A DNA stretch of 64,000 nucleotides, from contig OY253675.1 of NCBI GenBank assembly GCA_958009085.1, forward strand, positions 62,001 to 126,000. The letters are read 5' to 3'. Of this stretch, positions 20,401-62,746 are shown piece after piece; the stretch's first letter is position 1, and every line of letters begins with the position of its first letter. The DNA comes from Protoeuglena noctilucae (lineage: Eukaryota). A program made the position numbers and the translations under genes. The notes beneath the pieces were generated by a model. It saw only the letters and a program-made list of their open reading frames with translations. It was not told where the DNA came from and did no database searches.

Positions 20401-21664
20401 ACCGCCCGGCTGCGGTGGCCCCCCTGGTCCCCCAGCTGCTTCCGAGGGTGTACGCGCTGTGCCCGGTCGACCCCGCCAACATCGAGCAGGCGAGCGATTC
20501 GATGCGATGCGCAGTGAGACGTGGTGCGATGGGTGTTTGTGAGGAAGCTTATGAGGGTGACGGTGCTTGTGGAAATGAGGTGCATGCGAGGGTGAGGGTG
20601 CTTGCGATGGTGATGGTGCAGGGTGCTCGAGTGGGTGAGGGTGCTTGTGATCCTGTCTCCCTGCTCATCCTCATCACTCTTCTCCACCTCACCCCATCAC
20701 CCTCATCACCCTCGTCACCCCCACCCACCCCAGGTCCCCCTGGGCGCGTTCAAAATCACCGTCGACCGTGGTCAGGCCGTGCGCGTGGCTGCCATGGAGG
20801 CATTGGAAGCGGTGGTGGACCGCGTCTCTCTCACGCCCGGCGAAGCCACGGAGCTGCTGCGGGCCACGGGGGCGGGGCTGGCGTGGAATCGGGACATCGG
20901 GGCGGGGCAGTTCGAGGTGCTCAGCCTCGCGCACGGCGTCGTGGTGCGGGCGGCCGGGTGAGTGAGCGGGTGGGGGTGGGGGGTGTGGGGGCGGGCATGG
21001 TTGTGCTCGGAAGGGTAACGGGTGCAGTTGGTGGGGTGTGCTTGGCATGGGTGCGTGGCTGGGCAATAGGGTCGCGCTGTTCCTATGTCCCATCCATTTC
21101 CTCTCACAGCAAGTACCCCCGCGTGGTGGTGCCGATGCTGGATGCGCTCGCCCCGCCGCTCACGGATATCCTCAAGGCGGAGGCCGGCAAGACGGCCGTG
21201 CAGCAGGAACAGGATCGATTCGCGGAGGTGCACAGGTGAAGAGGGAAGAGCGCTGCACAGCGTAGGCAAAACCATGCACGCGGCGCGCGGGAGGGGCGGC
21301 ATGCGCCGCGCCGGGTGTGCTTGTGTTTATTATTCATATCTCCCCGATGCTGGGCTCGAACGCGCCGCGGATTTTGTCGTGTAAGGTCCCGAATCGTGCC
21401 CGCAGGTCGGCGTTGCGCGCTGTGTTTGCGATGTCGCAGCTGCCGTCTGCCGAGCTCAGCCAGGAGCTCAACAACTGTATCCAGACGATCCAGGCGAGTG
21501 ACACTGAGCGCAATGCGGGAACGTGGCGATGCTGAAAAGATGGCTTAGCTCACGTTGCATTCTGTGCCCCACCGCCACAGAAGATGCCCGGGCATCTGGC
21601 CGTGCTGGAGCAGCTGCAGAAGGAGCATCTGAGCAGCGGCCCGGACGCTAGGCAGACGGCATAG
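14423..21664 (+). CDS. CAND1: cullin-associated NEDD8-dissociated protein 1 (HEAT repeats), ~18 exons
   Basis: N-terminus 'LLEKLASTDKDLRHMATSDL'; 'FLGFDPNYEESDEDE...DDEDESWRVRRACCK'; 'RASDRDTSVRLD'; 'DRLSSETTRLPA'; 'EEGVKAAVRDTLG'; 'VPLGAFKITVDRGQAVRVAAME'; 'AVQQEQDR...RSALRAV'. Stop TAG at 21662-21664. Confidence 0.92.
16317..16392 (+). repeat. intronic minisatellite (GTGGCAGTGGGG)n
   Basis: About six degenerate 12-bp units in a CAND1 intron. Confidence 0.7.
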
Positions 21665-22784: not shown

Positions 22785-23195
22785 CCAGGGCTCTGGTGCG
22801 GGGATCACCAGTGATCCTGTCACGGCCTTATCTCACTCAGAAGGCCGCGGGGACAGCCAAAGCCATGCCAGATAGTCGAGACAAGGCGGACATGTGGTCT
22901 CGGTCAATCAACTGCCACGCGTGCTTCAGCAGTCGCAACCAAAGGCACGCATTAGCGCAAACGAGGCGCCGCATGGCAAGGCTGCTATTAACACCCTCCC
23001 TCCCGCACCCTTCCCCCTCCAGCGCCACGCTCGTTGCCAGCTCGCTGCCCACCGCCTGCCCACTGCCTGCCCACACAGACCAGCCGCTCCCATGCTCGAC
23101 CGCACGCCTCCCTCACGTGCACCACACCTCCCCAGCACCCGCACCGCTGCCGCCCACCACTGGGCCAGCGCCGGTCCCTTGGCCGCCTGCACTAA
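22785..23195 (+). repeat. dispersed repeat, 3' flank of F-box-ankyrin gene (homologous to 8065-8420)
   Basis: Shared blocks such as tgtcacg-cct-atc-cactca-aagg and ccgctgccgcccaccactg. Confidence 0.75.
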
Positions 23196-23341
23196 GCAGT
23201 GCAGTGAGTCGCTGTAAGACCCACGCCACGCTTGCAGCTGCCCATGCCTGCTGCTGCCACCTCCTGCACCCATCCACACGCTGCAGCACATGCCGACTCT
23301 GCCCCGCTCCCACGCCCCACGCCCTCACCCTGCATGCTTGG

Positions 23342-24966
23342 TCAGCCAGGCGGGCTGCTGCTGCGCTTAGCCCGCAGCTCTGCCACCATGCGCTCCACCA
23401 GCCCCGGCTCCCCGCCCGTGTTGACCAGGTCCGCGCCGCGGTCGGCCAGCCGCAGCACGACCTCGGTTTCGACGCGAAATTGAGATGCCAGCACGCATAT
23501 CGGCGTCCTGCCCTCCCTATCCCGCGCCTCCAAGTCTGCCCCAGCGCCCAGCAGCACGTCTGCGCACGCCTTGTGCCTCACCCAGTGCAGAGGCGTCTGG
23601 CCATCCTCATCTGCAGCATTGGCGTCAGCCCCTGCCGACAGCAGCTGTCGCGTCACAGCTGCAGCTACTGCCCCTCCTAGAGAGCAGCACACCGCGGCGT
23701 GAAGGCACGTTGAACTATTCCAGCTCTTCGCGTCGACGTCTGCGCCCAGCTCAATCAGAGCGCGGACAGCATCGATGCGGCCATTACGGCAGGCCTCGTG
23801 GAGTGGTGAGCTACTGAAACCGTCGCCCTGGATGCTCAGCCCACGCGCCGCCAGCCACTGCACCACCTCCCCATTCGCCGCCTCGTGTATCGCAGTCCGC
23901 AAATCATTGCTGGCGGCAGCTACGTTGGCCCCCAGATCCACTAAAGTCTCCAGCACGGCCAGGTTGCCTCGACTTGCTGCGCGATGGAGGGCCGTAAAGC
24001 CCATAAGACCGACTGCGTTCACGTCCGCCCCTGCCTCCGCCAGCCGACGCACGATGCCCGGCGTTGGTTGGCCCTCGCACACAAATGCCAGCGTACGGTC
24101 CCGGCCAGCCCCCCCCACCTTGGCCGACGCCGCCGCCTCCAGCAGCGCCTCCACCACCATCTCGTGACCCCCACGCCCGGCATAAATCAACGCCGTAAAC
24201 CAACCTCCTTCTTCACCACCTCCCTCCGCATCCACCTCCGCCCCCGCTGCCAGGCACGCCTTCACTGCCTCCAGGCAGCCCCGCTTCGCGCAGTACGTCA
24301 TCAGCGGCCACGCTCCCTGAAGCCGCCGGTTGACGTCCGCCCCCATCCCCACCGCCACCCGCACCATCCGCGCCTCCTCCCCGTCCCCCAGCGCGTACGC
24401 CCACTCCACCTTGCCGTCCGCCCCACGCCCCACCGGCTGCCTCGCCACCACCGCCACCATCAGGGGCGACTGGTCGACATCCCTAGTATCTTGGACCGCC
24501 CACGATACCCCGTTGATGTCCGGCCCCTCTGCCACCAGCACCGCCAGCCACCACAGCCCCAGGCTCGCCAGGTGGTGCGCGTGGGACCCATCACGCGCGT
24601 ACACCACCAGCGGCCCGTAGTCGAGCGTGCCTTCCGGCATACGGGACCGGAAGTGAATGCATATGCCCTCCCGCCCGTCCTCCGCCGTGGCCCGGATGCC
24701 CCACGCCCTCCACACCTCGTCGCGCATCTCCCGCGACACCGCACGCGCCGCCGTGGCGTCGCGCAGCGGCACCAGCCGCAGGATCTCGCGATGCACCTCC
24801 CCGGGCAGGTCGCCCCACCCTGCGCGCGCGACCGGCCCACGCGGGATGCCTAAACAACCCAGCCAAAGCGACACCAAGCCAGACGGCCTCGCCGCTGCGC
24901 CTCACCCACAGGCGAACTCCTCAGGGTGGGATCCGACGCTCGCTCAGCATCTGCATCGCCCGGCAT
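23342..24966 (-). CDS. F-box + ankyrin-repeat protein (~9-10 ANK repeats)
   Basis: F-box 'WGDLPGEVHREILRLVPLRDATAARAVSREMR', then repeats such as 'FTALHRAASRGNLAVLETLVDLGANV', 'SPLHEACRNGRIDAVRALIELGADVDA', 'QTPLHW...LLGAGADLEARD'. One 1.5-kb exon; a probable 56-nt 5' intron (24850-24905) links it in phase to ATG 24966. Confidence 0.88.
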
Positions 24967-25563
24967 CCCTCGTCTGCGGGCACGCCCGCCGCGCACCGTC
25001 ACGACTGCCCACGCATCCGTCACATTCAACCAGCGCAGGCGCGGCGTCCGAGGCCTCCCGTCCGGCCCCGTCCTGCCCAGCAGCTGCATGCTCCACTCAC
25101 GCGTCCTGCACACGGCCCCCTTGGCCCCGGAACGACGCCGCGCGGACGCAGACAAGGCCTCAAGCTCTGCACTGCGTGACCAAGCTGGGATCTGGCTCAC
25201 TCCGCTCGCGCGCTCGCCACCAATGGCTCAAGCTCGCATCCCTTGACTCGCGAGATGTGCGCTGCGGCGCGCCCGAGCCCCGCGGTCGGTCCCCGGGCCG
25301 CGCGGGGGAGGCCCCGTGTCGGTTGCGCGCCAGGCCTGCGATTGCCCCGCTGCGCCGCCGTCTGCGCCGATGCGCGCGTCGGCCAGGCCATCCGGCAGCG
25401 AGTGCCTCCGATCGCGTCCCCGCACCCGACGAGCGGCAAGCGACACGCGCAGGCAGCCCAGCACGTGCGTCCTCGCTTGCTTCCTTGCGAGCCGAGCCCC
25501 GTCGAGGGCTGGCCGGTGGTCCGCTCGGCCGCGATGGTGTGCGGGTCATCCGCAGCCGGTCGT

Positions 25564-25812
25564 GGGCAGCTGTGCTGTCGGGCAGCCCCGCCGGCGCCTG
25601 GCTCTCGGGGGGTCCCATGGGCAGGGAGCGGGGCTGCTGGCAAGGCCACGAGCATGGGCCTGCGCTTTCATGCGCCGCTGGATGGAGCGTCGGCCTGCGC
25701 TTGAAGCGGCGTCTACTCTAGCAGTCCCGTCGCTGGCCGGCTCCTCGCCCCGCATGCGCCTTCTCCCACCCGTCGAGAGGGTGACAGGGACCGGCCATGC
25801 ACGCCTGGCAGA
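25564..25812 (+). repeat. dispersed repeat, 5' flank of F-box-ankyrin gene (homologous to 8436-8675)
   Basis: Near-identical blocks ggtcccatgggca, tcatgcgccgctggatggagcgtcggcctgcgcttga, ctcctcgccccgcatgcgcct. Confidence 0.8.
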
Positions 25813-29475: not shown

Positions 29476-32400
29476 ATGGCTGTGCATCACGCCCAGCCCT
29501 CTATCCGCGAGAGCTCCGGGTGGGGAGAGGAGTCCGCATCTCCCGCACCACGCAAGCCGCGCGGGGCGGGCCTGGCGGGCCCCGCGCGGGCGGCGTTCCG
29601 CGAGGCCGGGCCCGGGGACGAGGGCAGCGACGCGGCGGACTTGGAGGAGAGTTTGGAGGACCACGTGTCGTCTGCGATGGACCATCAAGTGGAATCGGAA
29701 CCGTCCATGGGGGTGCCACCCAGGCGAGGCGGGCGCGGGGGGCGGGTTGCAGTGGGGTGGGGCTGCGGTGGGCGTGGGGTTGCGGTGGGCGGCGTGGGGC
29801 TGCGGTGGTCAAGCGTGAGAGGGGCGCTTTCCCGGCTCCCCGTCTGTCATCATCTCCACCTATGCGATTCGTCTCAATCTGTCGTATCACCATTCGCAGT
29901 GTCCACTTCAGCCAATTGGAGGAGCAAGTGGGCCGGTCCCTGGTGGGCCGTGGCGGTGACGTGTTAGAGGGACTGTCGCTGGCACCGGGCAACTTTAATG
30001 AGGAGAAAGCGAGGGGATTGATGCAGTGGGTGGAGACGGGGCAGCTCATGTCCAAGAGAGACCAGCGCAAGTTCCGAGCGCGTATGGGTGAGTGGGGTAG
30101 GGTTTGTGGGTGCGGGAGTGGGGTTGGGTGCGGTGTGGGTGGCAGGGGGGGTGCAGGGGGTGAGGGGTGGGTGCGGGTAGCACTGAAGGTGCGGATGGGG
30201 GTGGGGGTGGGGGTAGCAGTGAGGGTGCGGCTGGGTGGGCATGTGGGTGTTGAGGTGTGGGCGAGGGTGAGGGTGCGGTGGGTACACAGTGCGATGTCTG
30301 ACGTCATTCGTTCTCAACCCCCGCGAGCGTGGCGGCAGCGTGGGGGAGCAGTCCGAGAATGCCCTGGATGACGTGCAGGATTTGAAGGACGAGTTGGAGC
30401 AGATGGCCTTGGGGGACGCGCAGGTGTTTGGGAAGGAGAAGGCGCAGGTGAGGGGGGGTGGCGGTGGCTGTGAGGGTAGTAGTGGGGGTGTGCATGCCAT
30501 GCCTTGCCTTGCCAGCGAGTCTGCATCGCTGCGACAGTCTAGCCACTGTCAGATGAAGTGATTATTACTAACAATCTCTCACGTGTCCCTTGCAGATGGT
30601 GACGGGGGAGATGCTCCGGCTGATCGAGTACGCCAAGAAGTCTGTGGGGGAGCTGACGGGTGAGGTCGATCTCCATCTCTATCTCTATCTCCATCTCTCT
30701 CACTCTCCCACTCACACTCCCTCCGCATGCAGAGACCCGCCTGTTCCTCGACCTCTTCAAGGACAACGCCATGCTCTCCCGCAACGCCCCCGCGGCGGTG
30801 CTGCTGCAGCTGGCGATCGGGGTGTCGCGATTGACGCGCGTCACTAGCGACCTCGACACCTACCTCGCCTGGCTGCAACTGGCCGTGTCGAAATACGGGC
30901 CCATGCACATGCAACGGATGGCGAAGGGTGAGGGGGTGGGGGTGTGGTAGAGGGGTATGCATGATGTAACTTGCCCATCCATATGCAGCGAGGTGGTGGA
31001 GGGTGACTGACTGACGTGGTCTGTCGGACCAGACTCACCATCGATATTATCGTTACAATTTATCACAATATACAGATGTAATTATAGAGTTATATGTATA
31101 TTACCGTTCGCGCTCTCCCCACCCCCAGACACGGAGCGTCAGTTGGCGGAGATGCGCAAGAAGCTGCGCCTGATGGAGCTGCGGATGAAGATCCTCGTTT
31201 CCTACGACCGCGTCCACCACATGGCCACCGTGGGGCTCAAGTGGTTCCGATTGGCGTCCAAGCTCAGGCGAGGACTCTTGCATATCAGTTGTGAATGATT
31301 ATAAACTGTTATTACCATGTAAATGATAATAGCTATTAATGATAGCTTTTTCTGGTAAAATAGTGCTATGTTGCAAATATCTGTATTTATATGATTACTA
31401 TAATTGTACATGTGTTAATATTATTAACACATTTACAATTATATTCATCATTCCCTTCGCCCCCAACCCCACCCCAGGGACCACCGCCTGGATCAGCACT
31501 ACCGCCTCAAATACGCCCGGCTGGTGGCGCGGTGTCGTGGATTGGAGCGCGCGCTGCAGCAGAGCTTGGCGGGGCGGTCGGCGCAGTGGATGAGGCGTCA
31601 GGTGGATCTGAGGGACGTGGCGGGGCCGCACTGGAGGCACTCGGTCGAGTGGAAGGGGGGAGGTGAGGGGGTGGTGTAGGGTGGGGTGGTGAGGGTGGTG
31701 TTGGTATGGATGGAACGTGGTTTAGCAATCCGGGTGTGACGGTGGCGGGTGCCTCACCCCCACCCCCACCGATACCCCCACTGCCACCCACTGCCACCCT
31801 TAGTACCCCCCCCACTACCACCCTCACTGCTACCCTCACTACCACCCCCACTGCCACCCCCACCCCCACCCCCACTGCTACCCCCACTCCCACCCCAATT
31901 CCCACACCCACATTCAAAAACCCCACCCCCTCTCCCCCCCCCCGCAGCATCTCGCCCCGTCTCTGCCCCCCCCGCCCGCCCCTCCACCGCCTCCGCCCGC
32001 CACCCCAAAGCATCCCCCACCAAAGGCGCCGCCCATCGCCCCGCAAGCCCTGTGGGAGACGCGGCTGTCGCCACCAAGCGCAGCACCGCCGCTGTTCGGG
32101 GATTTGTGGACAGGGGTGGCTTCCTGGCGGCGTTTCAGAGGCCGTCCAAGAGACTGCTGGACCTGTCGGGTGAGGGGTTGTTATCAGGGGATCGCATTTG
32201 GTGGGGTGACTGGGCGTGTTTGGTTGGTGTTGTGTTTGGTTGGTGTTGGCTGTGGGTGGCGCGACTTCGTAAGTGTCGCATGAGTACCGATCATCAGAAT
32301 CTGCAACAAGTACAATGCGGTGGTAACACCAGTAAAACTAGTAAGCTCAGGTGTATATAAATAGTAATATCCCATATCACAAAATGTCTCTCTAACCCCT

Positions 32401-35400
32401 TGCCCCCCAGGCGCGGACGGTGCGGGTGCGGAGGGCGCCAGCCGCATGCGCCTGACCAAGGCGCCAGAGTTGGTGTTGCACAGGGAGGGGAAGGCGTATC
32501 GGGGGGAGGACGGGGGGTGGGAGTCAGAAGCAGATCTGAGGTGAGTGGAGTGTGGAAAGTGTTAGGAGAATGCATCTTACATGAGAAAATGGGGTTGTCT
32601 TTTATTTCCTTATTTTTAAATCCACTAGCTATACACACTCCACCCATCCCAGGTCCCTGTGGTCCTCTCACTTTGCCATGGAGGGTCTCTCTCTCTACAG
32701 CATATATAATTACAATTAAAACAATCATATTTCCTTTCCCCACAACCCAGGTCCCTGTGGTCTTCTCACTTTGCCATGGAAGGGCTGTCGCTCTACAGCA
32801 GCATGCCCGGTCTGCGCTTGGGCAGGGACGGCAGCGATGCCGACATACTTCGTTATTTCGGGGAACCGTCGATGGAGGATATTATGGAGGAGGCGGCTGT
32901 GAATAACAACGCCACGCCGTCGGTGGCGTCGGGTGAGGGTTGTGGAGGGAAGGGTGGGGGTTGGTGGTGCGGGTGGGGTGGGGAGTGGGGTGAGAGTGGG
33001 GAGTTGGGGTTGATGTCCGCGGAGATTAGAACTGAGCACGAGATGGAGCAGTCTCGATTGACGATTGATTATTGATATTAGTTATATTAGTTATAATTAA
33101 TAATTATCATCATTCCTATCTCCGTAGAGATCGAGCACGAGATGGAGCAGGCGGCGTTGATGCTCCCCCGCCGCCCGGACCTCCGCAACGACCGCGCCCC
33201 GTCCCAGCCACGAATGGGAGCTGCGGACGATGTTGCTATCGACACAGTTAATGTCACGGCTACCGATGCGGGGGGTGTAAGTGGTGGTGGTGGTATGGAT
33301 GGTATGGGTGGCGTGGGGGGGGGAGCGGGGGCGGGTGGCAGCGAGGGTGGGGCTGCGGTGGTGGATGCTACTGGTGGTGGTATTGGTGGTGATGCTGCGA
33401 TTGATACAGCTATGGGTGCCGATACTGCTGGTGGTACTGGGGATGCCGTCAATGTCGCTGGTGCGGCGGCTGTGGATGGGGCGGGGGGTGCTACTGGGGG
33501 AAGCGCTGGGGGTGCAGACAATGTCAGTGGTAATGGCAATGGCAATGGCAGTGATCCTGGCATCGCCGGCAATCGCGGCAGCAACGGCAGTGGCGGGGAC
33601 AGCAGCGGTGGCGACAACAACAACAATACCCCCGCCCCCGCCCCCGCCCCCGCCCCCGCCCCCGCTGTGGCCAAGAGCCACGACACCGGCGACTCCGACA
33701 CCGATTCCGACACGCAATCTGGCACCGGCCGCGACGATTCTGGCGGCGCGTCCGCCGCCCCCTCCCCCCCCCGCGTTCTGACGTTGGTGCGGTCGGTGTC
33801 CGTGCGATCGGAGGGCATTGAGAGGGCAGAGGAGCTCGTGTTGGGGTCGAGGGCTGCCAGTATTCGGCGCATGCGGTATAACATGGCGGAGGAAACGGTG
33901 GGGGAGGAGGTGGGGGCGGGGGTGGGTGCGATGGTGGGGGCGGTGGGGGTGGGTGCGGGGGTGGTGGGGAGGGGAGCAGGGGTGCGGTGGGGGTGGGGGT
34001 GGTGGGAGAGGGGAGTGAGGGGTTGGTTAAAGAGGGGAGCAGGGAAGTTGGAAGTAAAGATGTGGTTAAAGAGGAAAATGAGGGGCCGGTGGGGATGGCG
34101 GCGGTGGGGGAGGGGAGCGAGAGTGGGACTGGGGATGGGGATAAGGATGGGGATGGAGATGGGGATAAGGATGGAGATAGTGAGGGAGAGTTGGAGGGTC
34201 TGAGTGCGGAGGAGGTGGCGAAGAGGACGGCGTATTGGAAGCAGATGTTCCCAGACAGGGTGGAGGTAAGAGATGTTATGTGCTGTTTAGTAATAGTGAA
34301 TGGGAGGTGCGTGTTTGATTGTACATGAAAATGGCAAGCAGCTGGTCCCAATCAACCCTTTTCATATCATCTCTCACTTATCGCTTCCCCCAATCGCTTT
34401 CTCCCCCCCAGCGCCTGGGCCGCCCCGATGTCGACCGTGTGATGGACATGCTGGAGGAGAGGAGCAGCCGGGTGGAGATTGAAAGAGAGGTGAGGGATGG
34501 GATGTAGTGATATTATTGTATACATATATCATATGCAATGATATAAATAGTGTGGCAGTGGCTGTGCCATGGACATGCCCGTTCAATGACACCCACACAT
34601 GCACACACGTCAAACAACATCAGTCCCCATTCCCAACACTTTCCAATTCAATTCATCCAAACCCACCCTTCATTCCAACCCCCCAACCCCCCTCATCCCA
34701 CCCCCCAGGTCCGCTATGCCGAGGCGAGCGGTGCGGGGCGGGAGGCGGTGGCGAGAGGGCTGACGCGCGATCCCAGGAAAGGGGGCACTGGGCCAAAGAA
34801 AGCAGAGAAATCGACATCGCCGGGAAGGGAGAGGGGCGGCGTGGGAGAGGAGGGGGAGGGGGGTGCGGAGGGGGGTGGGTCGCGATTGGCGATGCACCGG
34901 TGAGGGGGGGTGGAGTGGTTGGGAGGTCGCACTGAAACGTGCGATACTACTGCGGGCTACCTGTTACAGTGTTCATTCTCTCTTTCTCTCGCACAACGTG
35001 ACCCTCACCTCCCTCGTCGCTACCCCCGGCATTCAATCGCATTCCTGCTCCTGGGCCGCACCCGCTCCCTCTCACTCTCTCTCTTGGCGATCAATCCCAT
35101 CACCTCTTTATCTACCCATTACCACTCTGTCATCTCTTATCCCTTTTACTAATCGCAGTGCCTCCCAGCGCGCCCTGCTCCTGGGCCGCACCCGCTCTCG
35201 CCTGGCCAGCGCATTGGAGGAGATCGCGACGGCAAAGGCGGTGATCGACGCAGAAAAGGAAAGGGTACTGATCAAAGAAAAGGAAAGGGAGAGGGAGAGG
35301 GAGAGGGAGAGGGAGACGGGGATCGTGCGAAACACGAACGCGGGTGGTGGTGGGGGTGGGGGTGGTGGGGGTAACAACAGTGGTGGTAAAGGTGGTAATC

Positions 35401-38400
35401 AGGATAACCAGCCAGGGGCTCCCAGGCTGCAGCGCATGCGGTCTGCACTTCGAATCGGGGCGAGGGCGGAGGCCACGAGGGACCCCTCCCTCTTCGCGAC
35501 GCCCAGCTACAAGGACGCGCCGGACAAGAGGGCGCAGGTGAGAGCCGTGAATGGCAGTTGTATGTTACATTCAATATGTTGGTATATTATAACAAGCTGG
35601 TTGTTGCTGCTAGGACGCGCCGGACAGGAGGGCGCAGGTGAGGGGGCAGGTGAGAGGGGGTGGGTGTGGGTGGCATGTGGTGTACAGTACGCTGTCATTC
35701 GATATAATCCATGAACATGTCATCGACTGCAGTGATCGACGCTTTGACTCATATAATTGCTAGTATCACTGCCCATCCCACTTCGGGCGATGAATCGTTC
35801 GCTCATTGCATAGCTTATCATTATCCATCTCAACATTTCAATCTCCACTCATCTCCCTCCCCCCCGCAGCACCTGCGCCTCCCCTCCCGCCGCGGACTGC
35901 TCACTGTGGCCGGCAGCGGCAGCCACGCCACCTCCCGCGCCGCCCCTGCCCCTCTCCCCCTCTCCCGCCACCTCAACACCATCGCATCGTCGCGCCGGGA
36001 AGCCGAGGGGAGCGGGGCGGACAGCGAGAGCGGCAGCGAGAGTGATAGCAGCAGCGGCAGCAGTGCGGCTGCGGGTGCGGGTGCGGGTGGGGTTACCAGT
36101 GGCAACGCCGAGCGGCGTTTGGAGGTGCAACAGAGCGGGAAGAGCGTCGGGTCGGCGAGCGCGAGGTCGGTGGCTGCGCAGAGGTCGGTGGGCAGGAGGG
36201 CGTCGTCGGGCAGGCGTGGGAAGGGGGCGAGGGGCAAGGCCAAGGGACTGGAGGGGGCGGGGGCGGGTGAGTGAAGGGTGTGGCTGGGGGGGGGGGGACA
36301 GATGTGGGGTGGGGTGCTACGGTCGCGCAGCACAATCTGCACAATGTGTTTTTTACAGCACGATCCGTGTCGCAGCCGCCCCCGGATCCACTTGCCCTGC
36401 GCTGTGCGGCGTTCCACAGCGCGGCTCTGCGGCTTCCCAACTACTGCTAAAACAATCGCACCTCGCAACTATGTAACACGACACACCATAACTACTGCCA
36501 CTGCCACAGCTGACCCCAAACCCCCCCCTCATACTCCCCCCCTTCCACCCCAGGCCCCTCCACCGATCCCGACGCCGGTTTGGATTCCCTGCAACTGCTG
36601 ACGGAATCTCAGGAGACGGCGGGTCGATTGCAGGCGGTGCACAAGGCGTTCCTGGACCCAGCGACGGGGTATGCGGTGCCCAGGGGCCACGTCGACCGGT
36701 CGGGCATCTACGCGGGGTTTCCGATCGAGGATGCGGGTGAGGGAATTGATAATTAGGGTTACTAGTACTATTAGATATACTAATGGTAGTCGTCGATGGG
36801 GATGGTATATGCTGAGATAGAGATGGGTGCGTGTGTTGGGACCGGGGTGGCCAATCAGGGACACTTGTGAGTGAATGGGTCACGTACATACCATGCAAAT
36901 CATTCAAGCAGTCGACAACATTTCTCTCTCCCCCCATCCCTCTCAGACCGCGAGGCCGCCGCCCGCGCGGTGCTGCGCAAGCGGCAGCAGGACTTCGACG
37001 ACGGCATCGACACCGAGCTCACGCAGATCATGCAGGCGAGAGTGACTTTGCAGTTGCCATAGCATGCATGCATTATCACCTGTACTAGTACTACTAGTAT
37101 GACTATATCACTGACTGTAATACTCACCATCACACTCACCCACCCACCCCAGGGCACCGGCCTCCTCCCCGACCGCCCCCCCCGCCCTTCCGATGCCGAC
37201 CTCCCCTCCATCCTCGCATCCCTTAACGACGAACACCTCGCCAGCGCCGTGCGGTGAGGGGGGAAGAGAGCGAGGGGATGTTGGTTCATTACCATATCGA
37301 TAATATTACTTATAATAGTAATGGTTTTGTATTTTATACTATTTGCTGTTATTATTATTATATTATAATTAATCTTTTAAATTTATTTTATTCTTAACTA
37401 TATAAGAATAATTATTATTATGAAGAAGTCATCTCTCTCCCCACTCCCCCCATCCCCCGCAGCGCCGTGGTGGCCCGCCAGGAGCAGGACCCCACCTTCC
37501 ATTTGCGCGGCATCTCCCGCTCCCAGGCGGTGGCCCAGGCATACGTGGCCATCACAACGGGGCTCAAGAACCCCACATTGCCGGATCCAAGCGCGCACAG
37601 GCGAGGGGGGGGTTGGGGGTTAGTGCGGGTGGGGGCAAGGGGGGGTAGGGTGGGTGATGTGAGGGCATGTGGCTGGTTGTGTGGTACAAGCACGGGTGCT
37701 GTGTTCTTGATTCGTGCTCTGCACGCTGGCTACCACCACATTTTCGCAAAACACAATGCTGTTTCACTCACTCATCCTTTAACAACACCTAACAACACCG
37801 CCCTCCCCCCCCCCCTCTCTTCACTGACTCAGGGCTCGCGTGGAGGCGTTGGGCCTGGGCATCAACCCAGCCATCATGCAGACGTACGTGAGACGTGCTA
37901 TGCCCAGCATCAGCAGCGTCACGTCACGCGGGGCCTCCAGCGAAGCACGATCTGTCAGGACGTCAGAATCGGAGGGGGGGGTTGAGAAGGGGGGCGAGGA
38001 GGGGGGTGGTGGATAAGGGGGATAAGACGGGTGATGGGGGTGTTAAGGATAAGGACAAGGATACAAAGCAGGGGAGTGTGGATAAGGCGGGCGGGACGAG
38101 GGGAGCGGCGGGGGCGGGTGGTGGTGCGGGTGCGGATGGTAGTGGGGTTGCGGGTGGCAGTGCGGGTGGCAATGCGGGTTTATTGTCATCTGTTGACGAA
38201 AGCGGCGTGCGTGGGGCGGAGGGGAGGGTGGTGAAGCGTCTGCGTGAGCTGTCGGTGTGGGGTGCGAGGGGGCGGGGCGGGGCGGGGGGAGGGTGGGGGT
38301 GGTGATAATGATGGGGATAGGAGAGAGGGGGTGGAACAAGAGAGCGGGGCAGTGGGTGGGGTGGCGGGCGGTGGGTCGATGGCAGGGGAGGGTGGGGGTG

Positions 38401-41400
38401 GGAAGGAGGCAACGAGGGCGACGGGTGGAGTCGAGAAGCGTTCAAACGCCCCGGCGGAGTCGGGTGGCGGGTCAGATTCAAATTCCAATTCAAATTCGGA
38501 TAGATCGGATACGGGCATCGGTGGGTCGGAGGGCGGGCGCGGGAGTGCGGTGGAGTGGCGGGAGCGGCAGGGGGTGGTGGATGTTAGGGAGTATGTGCAT
38601 AATCGCTATCAGGGTGCCATGAATCCACTCAAGACGGAGATGGGGAAGGAGGGTGCGGGGAGTGGGCATGAGTCTGCGGGGGGTGGGGAGGGGGGGAGAG
38701 GGGAGCGAGGGGGAGAGCGGGGGGGTGTCGTCGGATGCTGAGATCGTGGGGAGGGGAGGTGAGAAGATGAGATGGTATCGTTGATTGATAGATTAATTAG
38801 TTAAACACGGTGATTGGGGCTTGTGTTGACGGACTCTGGGGTGTGGAGCGTGCGAACATGTTGCCACGGCTCACCGGTACCCGCGCACCCTCACCACTCA
38901 CCCTCACCCTCACCTCACCCACACTCTCACTGCCACTCTCACCCTCACCCTCACCCCCCCCCCCGCAGCCGACGCCCCACCACCCCACCCCCCGAGTCAG
39001 TGCCAGAATTCACAGCCACTGAGATGGCCACGATGCGTGCCTTGCCACCCAAGAAGCCCTCTCTTCGATTCTTGGCGATGCGCTCCAGCCTTATGATGGG
39101 GGGGGCGGGAGACGAGGGCGGGGAGGGGGGCAAGGGGGCGGAGAGGGGGAGGGAGAGGGAGGGGAAGGTGAGGGGTGGGGGTGGTTGGGAGGGTGGCGGT
39201 GGGGGTGGTGATATGGGTGGTATTGGGGGTGGCAGTGGGGGTGGTAGTGAGGGCGACATTAAGGGTAGCAGTGAGGCTAGCATCAATGACAATAACAGCA
39301 CTCATCATTCCCCGCCACATCTCATCTCCTCGTCCCCGCAGCCCCCCGCAACCACCCCCTTCGGCATGATCCGCGTCGATGACTCTGGCGGCGATCTGAG
39401 TCAGCGGGGGGGGTGGAAGGCAGACGCGGCGGCGCACCGGGACAGCATGTTTGGCGGCGGGGCGGGCGGGGGGCGGGGGCGGGAGCGGGGCGGCGAGGGC
39501 AGGCGGCAGGGTGGGGGAGACGGGGAGCAGGCGAGGGAAGCCGGCGCGGGGCGGGAGAGGGACCGCGATCGCGAGGGAGGCGCGGACAGGGGTAAAGATA
39601 AGGATATTGATGAGGATAGGGAGAGAGAGAGGGAGCGCCGGGACCGGAGGGAGCGCCGGGCGTCGCGAGTGAGGGACATGTCGAGCGATTCCGGGTCCGA
39701 GGAGCGGAGCGTGGCGCGGAGGGGCGAAAAGCGGGACCGAAAAGACGGCAAGAGCGTTAATGTCATGGACGGGCGCGGCGGGAAGGCGGAGGGCGGGCGC
39801 GGCGGGGAGGAGAGCGACGGCGACCGGCGACCGCGCTCGCTCGCGCGGCCGGCGCCGCGACGACCGCGGAGCCGGCGATAATGAGCGACGAAATGACTTC
39901 GATCGCGATCGCGACCGGGCGCTGGGCCGCGGGCGCGCGCGGTCGGCGCGGGTGCGTGCGGAACGTCCGGCGGGGGCGATGGGCGATTTGACGGAGGAGG
40001 CTGCGGAAGAGGACCGACTCCGCGACGAGACGCGATCGTTCCAGGATCCGACGGAGCTGGAAGGGGACGCGGAGGCGGCGGACGGGTCGCCGCGGACGGG
40101 GGTGGGCGGGGCGGTGGTGCCGAGGACCTATGCTGACCAGGTGGGGGGTCACTGCGAGGGGATACATGGGGTGGTTGATTCCATGAATGGGTTGGTTGGG
40201 TTTGGTATGTTTGATTGGGATTTGTTGATACTGGGATGGCTGGAGAGGGGCTGTACAGCGATTTAGCAAGGCGGAGGGAGGCAACGTGCTGTGATGGTTG
40301 AGTGATGGGAAGTTGGCCCTTGGCTCGTGTCGAGTGCTTGGATCAATGCCCGATATCATCACAACACATGTAAATGACAATTAACAGATTAACATATTGT
40401 TAACATATCCGCATCCACCTCCCCCCCAGCTCGACCGCACCGGCGTGGGCGGGGCGATGCGCGACTGGATGCAGGCGACGGCGGGCGCTGCCAGCCAGGC
40501 AGCGGAGAAGGCCCGCCGCGCGCAGCAGGAATTGATGAAAGACAAATTCGCGGCCGTCGTGAAGGCCGCGCTGCGAGCGAGGCGCGAGGCCGCCAAAGAG
40601 GAGGCGGACGGGGCGCGCGGGGGTGGAGGGGGTCAAGCGGGGTTCTATTCGCGCGCTGCGGTGATCGAGATGGCGTCGCGGCACGCGCAGCAGATGCGGC
40701 AGCTGCAGGCGGCGTACGAGGATCGGATCACCGCCATGGAGGACAGGTGACGATTTGCGGTGGGGTTTCTGCTGAGGGTACAATTAGTAGAGGAGGGGGG
40801 TGATGGGCAGTGCATGGATCGCATCACCGCCATGGAGGACAGGTGAGGGGGGGAGGGGGGTGGTGTGTTGTTGTTTGTTGTTGTCACTGTTGTAGGAAGG
40901 GTAGGGGAGTGAGTGGATGGGATCACCGCCATGGAGGACAGGCGAGGGGCGATGAGGGCGGGTGTTAGGGGTGTAAGGTGCAATCAAAGTGAGGTAGTGA
41001 AACTGATCGAGTCACCGACATGGAGGACAGGCGAGGGGGGGTCGGTGTCTTGGGGTGTTGGGGAGTGGTGGTGCGAGTGGTCGAGTGAGCTAGTGGCATA
41101 GGAAAGTAGAAGATAGTGTAGAGGGGTAGCGATGGGGAGGGCAGCGAATGGATCGAATCGCAGCGATGGTGGTTAGACGAGGGCGCACATGGCGCCTCCA
41201 TCCCACACCCTCCCTGTCACCCACCCACACGCTCACTAGCAAACCCTGCCCATGGCTCACCATCCTCATTCTCCCAATAACCGTCCACCCCTGTCTTTCA
41301 AATCCTACCCAACCATTCCCCAACCACTCCCCCCCTGCAACGCAGGCACAAGGAGCGCCTGACCCGCGCCCACCCCACCCGACCCCGTGGCCCCGCCCCC

Positions 41401-44400
41401 GCCGCCACCCGCACCCGCGCCGGCGACGAAAAAGGGGACGCGGATCGAGACGTGGTGACGCGGGGGTTGCTGGATTTGATGGGCGCGCAGATGCGGGGGG
41501 TGGCGGACCCGCACCTGACGGAGCAGGCGACACGCCAGACCGAGGACTTTTTGGAATCCGCGGGGCTGTCGAAGGACATGGTGGCCGCCGCGAGTCGGAG
41601 GTCGATGCGGTCCGCGCTGGGGATCGAAGCGGGGACCTCCCGTCGGTCAGGGATGGCGAGCGCAAGCCGGGTGAGGGGGGGCGGTATTATGGGGGGGGAG
41701 GGTAGGGGGTGGGGTGGTGTTTGCTGTGTGGGGAGGTTGGCGGTTGATGCTGGTGGGGGAGAGAAGTGCAACGGAGAGAAAATAACATTACTGCACAGCT
41801 GTAGCTATCTGTCACAGCTAGTACCACCAACAACCCCGCTCTCGCTCTACCTACCACCCCACTCTCACCTTCACCCCTCCCTCTCTCTCTCCCCCCTCTC
41901 AGCTCTCGGCCCACAGTGCCTCCCTCCCTCTCTCTCACTCTCACTCTCATCCCCCACTCACCCTCACCCCTCTCTCTCCCTCTCCCCACAGCTCTCGGCC
42001 CACAGCGCCTCCCGCCCCGCGTCCCGCGCCGACCTCACCGCCCCCTCCACCTCCCAACGCCCATCGCGCAACGAAGCGCCGCCACCCCCGCCCTTCGCCA
42101 GTGCAGCCGCGAGGCTAGCGGCAGAGAGCGGGGCGCTGACCGATTGGGGAGAAGGGGCGGGTGCTGGGGGTGTTGCACTCGCAGCTGCGAGGGGGGGGTC
42201 GCCAGTACCGGTGCCAGTACCGGTGCCAGTGTGGGCGTCGGAATCGGGTGTCGCGGGCCGCCAGTCGCCGTCTGCGGGGCTGGCGACGGCGGCGGCGGCG
42301 GGGCAGCTGTTTGCGGGTGGGGAGGCGGGCCGCGCGGCCCTGCTGGCGAGGCCGGGGTCTGCGGTGGGGGAGGCGAGGGGGGCAGGGGCGGGGGCGGCGT
42401 TCGCGAGGCCCATGGTGAGGGGTGGGGGGTGATGGTGTGGTGTGTGGGTGATAGTGTGGTGAGGGTAATTGCGTGGGATGGTTGTGATGATGGGTGAAGA
42501 GTGGGTGTAGAGGGGATGTAGGTGGTTAGAGTGGATAGTTGGGTGTGGATAGGGTGGGAGAGGTTGGGTGGGGTGGCAGTGTGGGTAGAGTTTGTGGTGG
42601 GGGGCCATGTGACAACAAGTGGAGATGAAGACAATAGGATGGCAGTTGTGTGGTCATTATCACATGCATCTCTGCCACGCCTTGCCACCCCACTCCACCG
42701 CTCACACCACCCCCACTACCCCCCCACCCACTCCCCCCATCACCCATCCACCCTAACCCTCCTTACCCCTACCCCCCACTCCCCCCCCGCAGTCTGCCGC
42801 ACCCACCCCCTCCCGCCGCTCCCGCCTTGACCCCTCAGCGACCGCCACCGCCCCCACCGCCACGCCCGCCCCCTTCGCCCCTCCTCCCTTCCTCGACCCA
42901 CTGCCAGAATCCGCGTCCCTCGCCAGCCTGGGTCGAACGGGCGACCTCCGGCGCGCTGGGCGGGACGCCTGGGCCGAGGAGGGCTCGGAGGCACGCGGCG
43001 GGGGTTCGAACCCTGGCGCCGGCGGCGCCTTTTTGGGTGCGGCGGCGGGGATCGAAGGGCGGCTGTCGGAAGTGGTGCCGGAGGCATCGGAAGGGTCATT
43101 GGCGGATGCAATGGAAAGAGCAGAGGGGGCGAGGGGGGTAGGTGGGCGCGGGGCGGGGGCGGCGGTGGCGGTGGTGGAGGGCGGGGGTGGGGGACGGGCG
43201 GCGGCGTTGGCGGAGCCGCGACAGCGCGGACAGAAGGCGCATCAAGCACGGCCCGTGTCGGGTGAGTTGGAGTGAAGTAGTGGGGGGTAATAGATGGGAC
43301 GTGGATGTGGGTATGGATTCCGTATGGGTGATTGTGATGGATTAGACACTCTTGTGACACTGCCACCTCTCTCCGCACCCCCCTCCACTTCACCCCAACC
43401 CCGCAGCCATCGTAGCACAACGCTCCACCCCCACCCCACCCCCTCACTCCACCCACCCCTACCCCACCCCCGCAGCCATCGTAACACAACGCTCCGTCCC
43501 CGACCCCATCCGCCGCCATTTGTCATTCACTCCCTCACCCCCACCACACCCGCAGCCATTCTGGCACAGCGCTCCACCCCCACCTCGGTTCCCGACCCCA
43601 TCCGCCGCCATTCGCCATTCACTCCCTCATCCCCGTTACCCCCGCAGCCATTCTGGCACATCGCTCCACCCCCACTTCGGTTCCTGACCCCATCCGCCGC
43701 CATTTGTCGTCCGCCCGCGCCGACCCCGCCCACCGCCGGGGATCACGGCCCGCCACAGGGTCGACGGTTCAAATCTCGCGGCCGGCGTCGGGGGCCGTGG
43801 GGGCCATCGCGGGAGCGGCAGGTGAGGGGGGGGGGGGCTGTGAGGGGGAGATGAGATGAGTGGGAAGTGGATGAGTGGCGTTGTTATGTGAGTTGTTCAT
43901 AATCGTTGTTTATGGATTCAATTACTATCATAACAGACACTCAATTGTCTCCTGCAATGACTCACCATCACCCACTTATCCCCCTCCCCCGCAGCCCCCC
44001 ACCCCGCCCGTGCACGGAGCGCCACCACACAACACCCAAGCAACAACCAAAACCAACCCACCCTCGCCATCACCGCCACCGCCACAGCCACCGCCGCTCA
44101 CCCTACCAGCACTGTTAGTAATGCGGAGAGGGGCAGGCAGCAGGAGGGCTTTGCGGGTGCAGCGGTGTTGCGCAAAGGGGGGAGACCGGCGACGGCGAGG
44201 GTGGGGGCGGTGGGGGGTGCGACGGATAAGGACAGAGAAAGGGATAAGGATGGATCGCTGTTCGTGGCGCCGAGGCCGTCGCTGATGGGGGTGTCCAACC
44301 GGAGCCTGCTGATGGTGAGGGGGGGTGGGGGTGGGGGTAGCATTGGGGTAGCGATGGCTGTTGTTGTATGCTCTCGCTTACCCTTTCTCAACTCTCACCT

Positions 44401-45121: not shown

Positions 45122-48100
45122 TCACTTGCGCCCCTTTTTCGCAAACTCCTCCCTCAGATTCCGCCTCACTCCCCGCGCTTCCCCACTCTTCCCTCCATCC
45201 CCACCCCTCCACTTCCCACCACCCCCGCCCCTAACCCCACCCCCCGCACCGCCACCCATCGCACCAACATCGCTATCATTATCCAATTCCACTCCCACTG
45301 CGCTATTCCCCTCCTCATCTGTCGGCTCGTCGTCCCCGCCGCCACCCTTCCCGGCATTCCTGACACCGCCGCCTCTGACACCACCTGTTCTGACACCGCC
45401 GGCTCTGGCGCCAGTCTTGGCGTTTGCCGCGGGGGCGGTGCGCCCGGCCTTGGCAGCAGCGCCGCGTTGCTTGCCTCCCCGTTTGCGCACAGCAACGGGG
45501 GCAGTGGCAGCGGGGGTGGCAATGGCAGCGGGGGTGGCGATGTGGGCGGGGGTGGCGGCAGCGGTGGCTGTGATGCGGGGGGCGGTGCGGTCGAGTGGCT
45601 GCGGGTGAGGGGGAGTGGTTGGTTGATGGGAGTGGTTAGTTGATGAGGGTTAGGGGTTTGAGTAACATGCCACCACCCTATGCCATCTTCGTATCACCAT
45701 GCTCCGCTTACCACCCACACCCCTGCATGTCTCCCACCTATCGCACCAATCATTCCCACTCCACTATAGCTACTATTATTAATCCCTTATAGATGCACCC
45801 CCTCACCTGCGCCACTGCCGTGACCTGGCACCCCGTGCGCCTCTCCACCCACCGTCCACCACTCACCACTCACCACCCACACCCCACCATTACTCTAATC
45901 AACAATTACTCAAACTGTCATATCTACTTCTCACCTGCGCCAGCGCCGTGACCTGGCACCCCGTGCGTTTCTCCACCCACCGCCCCACCGTGAACACCCA
46001 CGCCGCCCCCCTCTCCCCCCCCGCCAACGCCTCCTCCACAATCACGCTCTCCGGCAGCCATGCCGAGAACAGTCCTCGCCCGCTGTGGCCCAGCCGCAGC
46101 TGCTTCAAGCGGCCCAGGTAACGTAACGCGGGGAATTCGAACTCGTCCACGCAGCCCGCCTTGAACTGCGGATTTGAATGAGATGGGGTTGATTTGAATG
46201 TGGGATTCGGTGTGCTGCAGTTACCATCATGCATATATGCATGATGGCGATAGATGATGACTTGATCATAACGTCAACATGACCATTATTGTTATCATAA
46301 CAGAACACATCCCTCCCCCCTCACCCTCCTCGGCCCCATGCGCGGCTGGATGAGACCCGAGGTGCCCCTCTCTCCCGTGATCTCGAAATGCACCTGAGAT
46401 GGAAAAGGCATAAGGATTAAGTTGATTAATGACTGTCACCAACCGTCGCCGCTCATCACAACCCATCACCACATCCCAATCCACTTATCCATTCATTCAA
46501 ATCCCCCACCCCCATCCACCCCCCACCTGCGCCCCCGTCCCAACCCACCTACCACAACACATGACCATACCTAAATTCATCCATTCAAATCCCCCACCCC
46601 CCATTCAACCCCAATCCAACTCCCCACCTGCGCCCCCGTCCCCGCCCCCGCCCCATCATCACAACATGCCAATCCATCGATCTCTCATCTCTCATACACC
46701 CAAATACCCCCCACCCAACCCAACCCCCCACCTGCGCCCCCGTCCCCGCCCCGCACTTCCTTGCCGTGGCAAACGTGACCCTGTACCCCCGCAGCCTGGC
46801 GGCCACCAGCTCATCCGCCTGCGTAGATGCGTCCGCCACAGTCACTGTCGTCTGCGCGTAGTGCACGCGATCGGAACCCAGCACGCTTTGCAGCGTGGCG
46901 TGGCAGGGGAAGCGCTGGGTGAGCGGGCGGCTGTCGTGGACGTGGGAGACGGTGATGGCCTCCAGGGGCCAGCGAATCTGGGGGTGGGAATGATATGGAA
47001 TAAACGTGTTACTGATGAGTGGTGGTTTAGATTTGTACTGCAACATATGGATTACACCCATATCTGGGAGACGGTCCAAAGCTCCTCCAACCCTTACTCG
47101 CATGCGCATCTCACCACCCCCGTCTCTCATAACAGCCAATCATATATAGCCATTCCCACACCCCATCTCACCTCGTGCACCCCCCTCATGAGCACGTGCA
47201 TCTTTGTCAGCACGCCCATCTCCCCCGCCGCCTCCGTTTGAAACGCGTCCGTCTGACCGGGGCGGAAAAGCCTGCCATTCTCGTCCGGCCACCTCCCCGT
47301 GCAGTTTCCGGCGAACAACTGGCGCCACCCCACCCCGTCCGGGTATCGATCCGAGTATAACAGGACATCCAGATTGTCAGAAACGGACTGACCGGGCTCG
47401 TCGCCCGTCTGCACCTCGAACGTGACCGGATAGGCGAACCCGGGACCTGTGATATTCCTATCGTAGTCCCCGGCATTCTGGCCATTTCTGGCAGTGTCGC
47501 CAGAGAGGGCGGAGGCGAGGGCGTTGGGCCTCTGTGCCGCGGCTGCCAGGAATGCGTCGGAATCGAGTGCCAGAGGAAGGAAGGGCTCGGATGGGGAGGG
47601 GGAGAGGAGCTGGGGGGGACAGAGAGGGGGGTGATGGGTGAGGGGGTGAGATGGGGTGGAGTTGGGCGAGGGGAGCGATGACTGGGTGACGATAGTGGTG
47701 TGAGTGATAAGTAAAATGGAACGGGGTGAGGGGTCTGAAGAGAGCTGGTGCAATCTCCACTCGCTTAGTTGATAACAATACACACACACTTATATACACG
47801 CACAACCCACACCCCACACTCGCCTTGTCGCATCGGAACACGGCCGTCTCCCTGGTAGTCAGGCACAGGATTTGAATATCGACCAGATGCCACTCGAAGG
47901 GACCCCAGAGCTTGAGATGCAGGCGGTGCATGGGGCTGGGGGGGGAGAGAGTGGGTGAGGGAGTGAATGAGGGACTGGGTGAGAGGGTGAGGGAGCGAGA
48001 GGGTGTTTACATGAAAGGGACGGGAGGAGTAGAGGTGCGGGCAGTGCATGGGTCAACCCCCACCCCATCCCATCTCACCACCCCCCACCCCATCCAATCC

Positions 48101-57100: not shown

Positions 57101-58833
57101 CCACCAGCGACGGTCGACAGTCTGCAGCTGACCACTCACCTGGTGTCTCATCGTCAAGTCAATCCACCCCATCAATCACGTTCCCTCAGCCGTATCGCTG
57201 ACCCCTCACCCGGCGTCTCGGCCGCCAGGAAGAAGGTGTGCACCATCACATGGACATGATAATCGTGAACCACACCCCATGAATACCACAATCACACCAA
57301 CTCACCCGGCGTCTCTGCCGCCAGGGAGAACGTGTGCACCACCACGTCAGTACAACAATCCAATTATTACTGATAGTATCCACTCACTACTATCAGCATC
57401 AGCATCACGAACACAAACACTCACCCGGCGTCTCTGCCGCCAGGAAGAACGTGTGCACCCCGCACGTGACGGCAAACACCCTCCCCGCCAGCCTGGCGTG
57501 CTGCACCCCTCCCTCCTCGTCATCACCCCCAATCCGCAAGTCAGGGACGGGACCGCGGATGCGACTGGTCAGCTGGCGAGGGTCCACCGCCTCAATGGGC
57601 TCGCGGGGGGGGGCCGGGCCGCGGGCACGGGGCGGGGGGGTGGCGGAGGTGCAGGCGGGGGCTGCGGGTGGGGTGGGGTGGGTGGGGATGGGTGGGGTGA
57701 GCGCGGGGCGGGGGGGTGGCGGAGGTGCGGGCGGGGGCTGCGGGGGTGGGGTGGGTGGGGTGAGAGTGGGGTGACAGGGTCAGGTGGGTTGCGTTCGATG
57801 GTTGCGTGGGTGGTGAAGAAAGGGTGTGGGTGGTTGCGGCTGCGACACTGCAACAAGGCCGATGCGATTCCCTGCATAGCGCACTACGCTCGACTGTATC
57901 AGCTATGACTCGTGACTGCACCAACTATGATCATTCGTGACTTTGCCCGCTTGCCTGGTTCGTAGTCTCCGTCGTCGAGGGGCAGCCGCGGTGGCGATGC
58001 GCGGGTGGCGGAGCGGGGGCGGCGGGGGAGGTTGGCGGGCATGTGACGCACGGGGAACTGCGGGCACGGATGGGGGTAGATGAGAGATGAGAGAGTGTGT
58101 GATGCTGGCAGTGCATGTGACGCACGGGGAACTGCGGACACAGATGGGGATGGATTGGAGATGAGGGAGAGTTAACATGGCATGTGACGCATTGCGGACC
58201 GTTGAGGATAAGAGAGACAGATGGATATAAGAGTGACAGGGGTTGGCATGGCATGTGTCGCAGCGTGGACAGGTGTTGATTACTCCACCATGCATTGGCC
58301 GCATCACAGCGCATGGTAAGATAGATAGCGACTTGCCTGGTCAAGGGGCAGGTACTTCAGCCCGGCCCTGTCCTTGCTCTGGTTGCTGCGGTAGTAGCAG
58401 AGGCGGTCGGGCAGGAGCACGAACTGCGGGAGAGGACGAGGACGAGTCAGCGGATGGCTGTGTTGATGACGACGGGCCATCATCGCTGCTGCGTTGGGCT
58501 GGACACTCGCACTCACGTAGCGACGCTTCCAGCTATGGCCGGGGGCGTCGTTGGTGAGCTTGTACAGCCATCTGCGGTCGCAAAAAGCGAGTTTATTCAC
58601 GAAACCACAACAATACGTCGAAACGACGTCGCCGGCGGGTCAGGCATCCGCCCACACCCTCACCCCTGGTGCAAAACCCGCTGCGACACCTCCGTGGTGT
58701 TCTGCATGGACAGCCAGGTGTCATCCTGGTGCGATGCGGACATCCCGCGCAGTCGAGGGGACCGGCCGGGGCGTCCCGGGTCTGCGGGACGCAACGGGAG
58801 ACCACGCATCTCGCGGGACGCGCTCCGACTCAT
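45122..58833 (-). CDS. N-terminal PH domain + ~12 tandem PLAT/LH2 domains (LOXHD1-like), >30 exons
   Basis: PH: 'VLHQG|WLYKLTN...SWKRRY|FVLLPDRLCYYRS...VHTFFLAAETP|ADARLWMRRL'. PLAT repeats: 'YEFTVRTG...AGTSSRVYAEMVGDEG...FQRGMADTF...HDCSGRHPDWYLESVRV...WTFLCQRWL', 'IGHNGLGTSPDWLLERVAV...YQFLCGQWL', 'GAGTNSPVFLNVYGENGDTG', 'FQRGARDEFEI', 'FKAGCVDEFEF...LGRLKQLRLGH'. Last exon ends ...FAKKGRK*. Confidence 0.85.
48560..48635 (+). repeat. intronic minisatellite (GGGGTGGCAGTG)n
   Basis: Five or more ~12-bp units; same motif as 16317-16392. Confidence 0.7.
54737..54781 (+). repeat. intronic microsatellite (AAATAG/AAACAG)n
   Basis: aaatagaaataaaatagaaatagaaatagaaacagaaacagaaa. Confidence 0.8.
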
Positions 58834-62644: not shown

Positions 62645-62746
62645 TGCTGCCGCCCGGCGCTCGCGGTCGTCCCTGTCCTCGCCCCGTCGCTCGTCCGCGA
62701 GGGATTTCAGCTGCCCCGTGCCGGGAATGGTTGAAAGTGGGGAGCG

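Follow-up and report, generated by a model that had tools for sequence, protein, structure and literature searches.

The window (the whole stretch of 64,000 nucleotides that was analysed, positions 62001-126000 of contig C8 in the assembly of the alga) contains an exon whose first 50 nt are found a second time in the preceding intron, with no difference that alters the encoded peptide. This copy, termed here an echo, raises the question of how a piece of intron comes to bear the mark of coding constraint: it could be in use today, it could be an error of assembly or a product of chance, or the constraint could belong to a time when the piece was not yet intronic. The features at and near the locus are the following.

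32411-32540, + strand: upstream exon of the host gene, ending at a GTGAG donor; matched by tblastn with the orthologue in metagenome contig L081 (74% over 34 aa)
32541-32652, + strand: 5' part of the 210-nt intron 32541-32750; resembles a complete intron of 112 nt, with a C-rich tract and then CAG
32653-32702, + strand: echo of 50 nt with five silent differences and without a donor; contained in DNA contigs of runs X2 and X5 and in a single unspliced X9 piece
32703-32750, + strand: spacer of 48 nt with the working acceptor; ungapped match to the 48 nt before the echo 19/48, not alignable
32751-32932, + strand: working exon; record 2 of RNA run X10 covers 32749-32931 with 0 differences, and the frame is continuous with the upstream exon and the orthologue
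33034-33051, + strand: short echo of the start of the next exon, in the following intron (offset 99, from self-comparison)
35606-35642, + strand: donor-side echo (offset 100) that carries a stop, inside a 332-nt intron

The focal exon and its echo

The echo repeats 32751-32800 at an offset of 98 nt, and a diagonal self-comparison of the window pairs 32648-32702 with 32746-32800 over 55 nt with 5 mismatches, CCCAG directly preceding both copies. According to the original prediction, all five differences are synonymous, and this was borne out on recomputation: 5 of the 50 positions differ, each a third position and silent (TCC/TCT, GAG/GAA, GGT/GGG, CTC/CTG and TCT/TCG, echo before exon), so that both copies encode SLWSSHFAMEGLSLYS. 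It had also been claimed that the echo does not qualify as an ordinary mutually exclusive exon. This holds as well, since inspection of the sequence found no donor after the echo, and splicing at its acceptor would add 98 nt, shift the frame and run into a stop four codons past the echo. The GTCCCT that follows the AG of the echo is outside the common donor motifs of this genome. A pattern search of the genome rendered two matches, namely the echo and the exon, and a search at the DNA level rendered one match; a paralogue as source of the echo was discarded on these grounds.

Among the possible single changes in this part of the exon 34 out of 144 are silent, which gives a naive chance of 7e-4 for five silent differences out of five. 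A fair null for a dead duplicate is, however, about 0.4 silent per difference, that is, about 0.01 for five out of five, and the focal case was picked from many. In addition, a (TC)5T run at 32686-32696 of the echo spans three of the five differences, which could have arisen in one slippage event. For these three reasons the focal case alone is no more than suggestive, and it is the statistic of the whole class of echoes that carries the claim.

Presence in DNA and RNA

Four runs were compared with the window: X2 and X5 (DNA), X9, and X10 (RNA). Runs X16-X23, which bear the same species label but contain next to none of its sequence words, were left out of the evidence. A single contig of X2 (record 8), a run that may be the source of the assembly, spans 31900-33598 with 0 differences and 0 gaps, and a single contig of X5 (record 14), a marine metagenome from a separate study, covers 31968-33335 without gaps and with one other letter. 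Marine metagenomes also contain the stretch. Both contigs carry echo and exon in tandem across 32540-32850 and thereby refute the wrong concatenation of two allelic haplotypes, the case that the original prediction had named against itself. Two small and probable assembly errors do occur in the neighbourhood (7 nt at 39818 absent from all four runs, and an additional 24 nt after 35251 in both DNA runs), but an artefact at the focal locus is scarcely conceivable. No second allele at this site appears among the letters listed for X2, X5, X9 and X10, the wild population of X5 having the same haplotype.

RNA carrying the variants of the echo joined to the downstream exon had also been envisaged. 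The only X10 contig over the exon start (record 2) carries the exon codons at all five sites, under thin coverage (depth 10); the 4 nt by which it overhangs do not fit the intron. The echo is covered by none of the X10 contigs, at an RNA depth that is low and in contigs that drop rare forms, and the X9 piece across it is either pre-mRNA or DNA. Record 4 of X10 joins across the 332-nt intron that contains the donor-side echo 35606-35642.

Host gene and orthologue

The host gene lies on the + strand and begins about 29.3 kb into the window. Its orthologue in L081 is one open frame of 577 codons (L081:1582-3312) that contains the focal peptide once and aligns across the junction 32540|32751, which fixes the reading frame of the host gene. 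Over these 577 codons there are 0 introns in the orthologue versus at least 8 in the gene of the window, so that there has been either heavy gain in the lineage of the window or loss in that of L081. No family was found in a Pfam search of the host protein, for which the orthologue was used. A scan of metagenomes for a partner allele rendered 1 distant orthologue among the 600 candidate stretches listed, and no echo-free allele. The gene at 14423-21660, whose start presumably resembles CAND1 and whose first exon has no Pfam match, has a homologue at L081:541-666 (64% over 42 aa), which is placed head-to-head with the host orthologue and indicates that the linkage has partly been kept.

Echoes as a genome-wide class

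The assembly comprises 26.3 Mb in 27 contigs, and 854 kb of it (the window plus 79 stretches of 10 kb) were scanned with a trained codon model and with repeats anchored at splice sites, the reading frame of each echo being taken from the working copy only. Filters of frame, motif and spacer, blind to the differences within the echoes, reduced 419 raw calls to 73, and removal by eye of three coding repeats in L042, one over-extended call in L023 and one with a doubtful donor in L074 left 68. These 68 echoes lie at 60 junctions, 46 being donor-side and 22 acceptor-side. The nearest echo is at a median distance of 94 nt (range 47-208), with no preference for multiples of three (16/60). By extrapolation, the genome would hold from several hundred to more than 1000 echoes.

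The class differs from its working copies by 94 silent versus 55 replacing changes, 95 of the 149 being at third positions. Trimming 6 nt at the far end leaves 78 versus 37 (omega 0.14-0.21), the echoes outside the window alone give 63 versus 31, and all 73 filtered calls give 117 versus 88 (omega 0.22); overall, omega is about 0.15-0.2, with a span of 0.12-0.26 over all trims and transition ratios (kappa), whereas a plain tandem duplicate with one dead copy should be near 0.5. The null of dead duplicates, with a silent share of 0.37-0.47, is rejected with p<=6e-5 in all subsets except donors alone (p<=0.005). Simulated dead duplicates that were passed through the same detector reached a silent share of at most 0.57 in 3 x 120 runs, versus 0.63 observed, and all differences are silent in 8 of the 26 echoes that have at least three. 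A held-out set of 12 mid-chromosome stretches (120 kb) contained 0 echoes, and the omega values therefore come from the 854-kb set alone.

Flanks, divergence and decay

While the exon parts of the 68 echoes are 0.93 identical to the working copies, the intron flanks are 0.38-0.40 identical, versus 0.33-0.37 for random pairs, the identity collapsing at about +6, directly after the splice motif of 5-6 nt. Nine of the echoes are perfect copies (19-34 nt), with a flank identity of 0.28-0.60. Flanks that can be aligned are found in 7/68, which indicates that plain tandem duplication also occurs. The splice motif itself is kept, as GT/GC in 43 of 46 donor-side echoes and as YAG in 19 of 22 acceptor-side ones, and the composition beyond it is similar in the two copies, with a G share of 0.43 and 0.49 after donors and a C share of 0.51 and 0.52 before acceptors; both copies have the look of genuine intron ends. 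Silent divergence falls into a single class (pS 0.21; chi2 63.6 on 67 df), uncorrelated with the replacing divergence (pN 0.036). A model of alleles at a fixed divergence fits these data; one of exponentially spread divergence fails (0/120). Silent differences with G in the exon and C in the echo outnumber the reverse by 25 to 11 (p=0.03).

Replacing changes are no more conservative than random ones (BLOSUM62 -0.58 versus -0.57, n=36) and 4/68 echoes contain stops, which places the constraint in the past and not in the present. The frame would stay open on use of the splice site of the echo in 3/68; none of the 46 donor echoes has an acceptor of its own, one of the 22 acceptor echoes has a donor of its own, and GT/GC opens 5/22 acceptor echoes. 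The echoes were once coding but no longer are, the buried pieces decaying neutrally, and the best reading of their coding signature is as a legacy of a time when they served another allele as its working exon ends. The original prediction had taken the focal case as an example of coding constraint on an intronic copy; the silent bias behind it proved real and general, but a constraint acting now is not supported, given the exon codons in the one RNA contig, the random replacing changes, the stops and the few open frames. Decay after burial is clear in L055 (C15:190001-200000), where an echo near 7660-7860 of the exon encoding VIYGDTDSVMV, which we take to be a motif of family B DNA polymerases, shows two silent changes and one S-to-L change.

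Distribution and further loci

In stretches chosen by position, junctions with echoes numbered 16 on C8 (210 kb scanned); on other contigs they numbered 7 at 50-100 kb from the start (160 kb scanned) and 2 at 200 kb (190 kb scanned), and contig middles had 0 (120 kb scanned). Echo density falls in these counts from chromosome ends to middles, as recombination often does and as the allele reading below would lead one to expect; by loci, the comparison of ends and middles is borderline (5/16 versus 0/12, p=0.053). The echoes track introns with C-poor, G/T-rich 5' ends, about 1 in 8-16 of such donors having one, and donors of this type amount to 2/100 in contig middles, the gradient from end to middle following the G-rich intron class itself. 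C8 (L022-L041) has echoes and G-rich introns along its whole length (9/21 loci, versus 7/47 elsewhere, p=0.03), and is possibly a chromosome with a different recombination history. Two further regions of the window are rich in echoes.

40816-41034, + strand: stack of three donor-side echoes at offsets 96, 195 and 284 behind donor 40747, each a different version
45603-57424, - strand: region of a PLAT-domain gene, introns placed by eye; echoes at 14/56 intron ends and in 11/28 introns, above 30 shuffles

The PLAT/LH2 identity of the second region comes from a Pfam match (PF01477) on one exon; a search of proteins for relatives with the PLAT exon passed 0 of 131 candidates. The strict caller detected 5 junctions there, versus the 14 intron ends of the guided scan. 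A perfect 41-nt exon copy (49475-49518/49602-49645) lies beside unrelated intron flank, and the amino-acid changes in a 71-nt echo at 51900-51975 are conservative, a property that was considered for the class and rejected as not general, in view of BLOSUM62 scores like those of random changes. Stacks of three or four different versions are present at junctions 40747, 57424 and 48313; a gradient of age within the stack was seen at 40747 and was inconsistent across the few others. Decaying copies of junctions are also stacked at 58040-58260 (acceptor side, minus strand) and 12851-13000 (donor side, plus strand). In contrast to the flank-less echoes, at 43399-43708 an acceptor has been duplicated in plain tandem together with its flank, in a 92-nt unit whose copies are 88% alike.

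Origin of the echoes

We favour, with somewhat better than even confidence, the reading that an echo is an old exon end, buried when one-sided recombination with another allele, whose silent sites had diverged by about 20%, was followed by end-joining. Two lineages of the green alga, separated by about 20% at silent sites and no longer alignable in their introns, would have met in one nucleus through mating or in a hybrid. A break inside an exon would then have led to one-sided strand invasion of the other allele and to the copying of about 95 nt, over the splice site and into non-homologous intron, where the new strand would have been unable to re-anneal and would have been end-joined to the other broken end. 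The product at the focal locus would consist of the old intron with its acceptor and 50 nt of the old exon start, followed by 48 nt of the end of the partner's intron, with its acceptor, and the partner's exon; accordingly worded in coordinates, 32541-32652 would be the intron of the old allele and 32703-32750 the 3' end of that of the other. Donor-side echoes would be the mirror image of this event. Each event would lengthen the intron by about 95 nt and make it chimeric, its repetition would give rise to stacks, and the buried piece would be spliced out and decay neutrally from then on. Since only events that carry a splice site keep the frame, only these would survive and stay visible.

As no second allele was seen, this mechanism is one that we infer. 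It fits the structure of the echoes, which have one homologous side (the exon part, 93% alike) and one non-homologous joint to an unrelated spacer, and the silent bias, the splice motif and the intron-end character of both copies fit two working alleles as the source. Two alleles with diverged introns would explain the unrelated flanks and the low omega at once, one-sided invasion being the simplest way to join them. The pair of haplotypes named in the original prediction probably exists, but its joining would have taken place in the organism rather than during assembly. If an omega of about 0.08 between alleles is assumed, simple arithmetic (pS 0.2, pN 0.03) would place about four fifths of the silent divergence before burial. 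GC3 is 0.88 in the codon model, and hence silent sites would be constrained and a silent difference of 20% compatible with introns that cannot be aligned. Against the allele reading, such a divergence together with unalignable introns is more like that of sister species than of one population, and a symmetric two-allele model does not predict the 25:11 asymmetry between G and C.

That asymmetry hints at directional change in the exon and would suit a duplication of the same allele at a staggered break, joined with ectopic filler, in which the exon then gains silent changes fast, by gene conversion from other alleles or by G-biased drift, and the echo slowly. Filler would account for the unrelated flanks, and partial duplications with filler are reported for rice (PMC7407515). 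However, silent sites would have to change about 4-5 times faster in the exon than in the echo to give the observed pS and pN, a duplication would be expected to end anywhere within the intron, but the identity is lost at about +6, and the supposed filler resembles a proper intron end; we regard this origin as unlikely. It can also be the case, although we find it improbable, that the genes are chimeras of an old allopolyploid or whole-gene duplicate pair collapsed by recombination, the echoes being the switch points. The single class of silent divergence would suit one such event, and the echoes are clustered in some genes, but the genome has no second copy of the focal exon and the stacks of three or four versions (40747, 57424, 48313) would need more than two parents or repeated rounds.

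A plain 98-nt tandem duplication that has since decayed, its five silent differences being luck and three of them the product of a TC microsatellite at one stroke, seems quite improbable. The (TC)5T run does cover those three, duplications bearing their flanks do exist (43399-43708, L040 and the 7/68 echoes above) and there is the weak ungapped flank match of 19/48; but the intron halves are unalignable where the exon halves are 90% alike, the silent share of the class is above that of all simulated dead duplicates, with its 8/26 all-silent echoes, and neither the perfect 41-nt copy beside unrelated flank nor an omega of 0.15-0.2 could be explained. We give very little credence to use of the echo today, be it as a mutually exclusive or alternative exon start, as part of a non-canonical 98-nt intron between the repeats, or as a recursive splice site. 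The silent-only differences, the C-rich acceptor kept at the echo, the GT directly after its AG and the in-frame GT...AG switch that can be drawn between the repeats would all agree with use, and there is little RNA coverage (a single contig of depth 10 with a 4-nt overhang). Against it, the sole X10 contig there has the exon codons at 5/5 sites, another splices over the donor echo 35606-35642, and the class shows a lack of own acceptors (0/46) and donors (1/22), few open frames (3/68) and some stops (4/68), with just 5/22 acceptor echoes starting GT/GC and random replacing changes.

Two other possibilities were ruled out by reasoning: an mRNA-templated origin, as the echoes keep intronic splice motifs and intron-like flanks, and gene conversion between echo and exon as the cause of the low omega, as it would preserve replacing differences longer and raise omega.

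Comparison with known systems

One-sided invasion, or SDSA, finished by end-joining was reportedly described by Puchta in 1998. Tandem exon duplication with mutually exclusive splicing is the Dscam type, with which the echoes share a near-copy of coding sequence in the neighbouring intron and a low omega; unlike it, they cover part of an exon and have a single splice site, would mostly disrupt the frame, contain stops in some cases, and none was seen in the thin RNA. The Rogers model is said to explain intron gain by tandem duplication of a segment containing AGGT. Direct repeats around splice signals are common to both, the focal repeat holding AG|GT, but with echoes no new intron results: an existing one gains length and a new end, and there is no relation between the intron parts of the repeat. 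The focal echo would belong neither with mutually exclusive exons nor with recursive sites or Rogers-type new introns, and it is no artefact; it would appear to work like one-sided recombination repair.

In the literature on break repair, one-sided HR completed by NHEJ is reported for gene targeting in plants (PMC5895730), templated repair scarred by local duplications and dependent on polymerase theta for Chlamydomonas (PMC8604939), and natural insertions with partial duplications of 10-1000 bp and filler for rice (PMC7407515, a review summarising Vaughn and Bennetzen 2014). One-sided invasion with end-joining shares with the echoes one homologous and one end-joined junction, and a partial copy of the template beside the retained original. 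It is known from induced breaks and transgenes, whereas the echoes would record natural events at splice junctions throughout the genome, templated by a diverged allele. The duplications of rice and Chlamydomonas are likewise local copies of tens to hundreds of bases, but they copy the same allele and start identical, while echoes differ mostly silently and extend no further than the splice motif. Introns that contain exon ends of diverged alleles do not figure in the available parts of these three papers, nor is anything comparable mentioned in that of a preprint on green-algal genomes (10.1101/2021.10.04.463119). No description of the echo pattern was found in the literature searched, mostly papers outside subscription.

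Implications

If the preferred reading of one-sided recombination is true, the echoes would be direct evidence, from one genome, of recombination between lineages of a marine microalga about 20% apart at silent sites, and would reveal a route of intron growth and splice-site replacement. We would go further only tentatively, to a ratchet in which repeated sex or hybridisation of deep lineages swaps exon ends and rebuilds the introns. Each swap would add about 95 nt of foreign intron, making introns more unlike and further events likelier; the long introns with G-rich, AT-rich and C-rich parts near chromosome ends and on C8 would have been built so, and hundreds of echoes would form, in one haploid genome, both a fossil record of extinct or unsampled alleles and a map of recombination. 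The preferred reading would also be a warning that an intronic copy of an exon can have a low omega with no alternative splicing behind it, a case that annotation software and any search for mutually exclusive exons would misinterpret.

Other features of the window and genome

An ORF of reverse transcriptase (PF00078) at 59373-62645 (+ strand), continued in other frames and with a poly(A) run at its end, looks like a non-LTR retroelement from its sequence. A dispersed repeat was noticed by eye at 8200-8700, 22960-23200 and 25560-25800, near open frames (23300-24860) that are presumably ankyrin-like. The 10-kb stretches L027 and L046 have a GC content of 0.49-0.50, versus about 0.66 for the genome, and are possible insertions of foreign or mobile DNA. 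Finally, the assignment to the green algae follows from the beta-tubulin exon of the window, which had its best match in chain 6u42_1, an entry of Chlamydomonas, with 509 bits versus 484 for the next.
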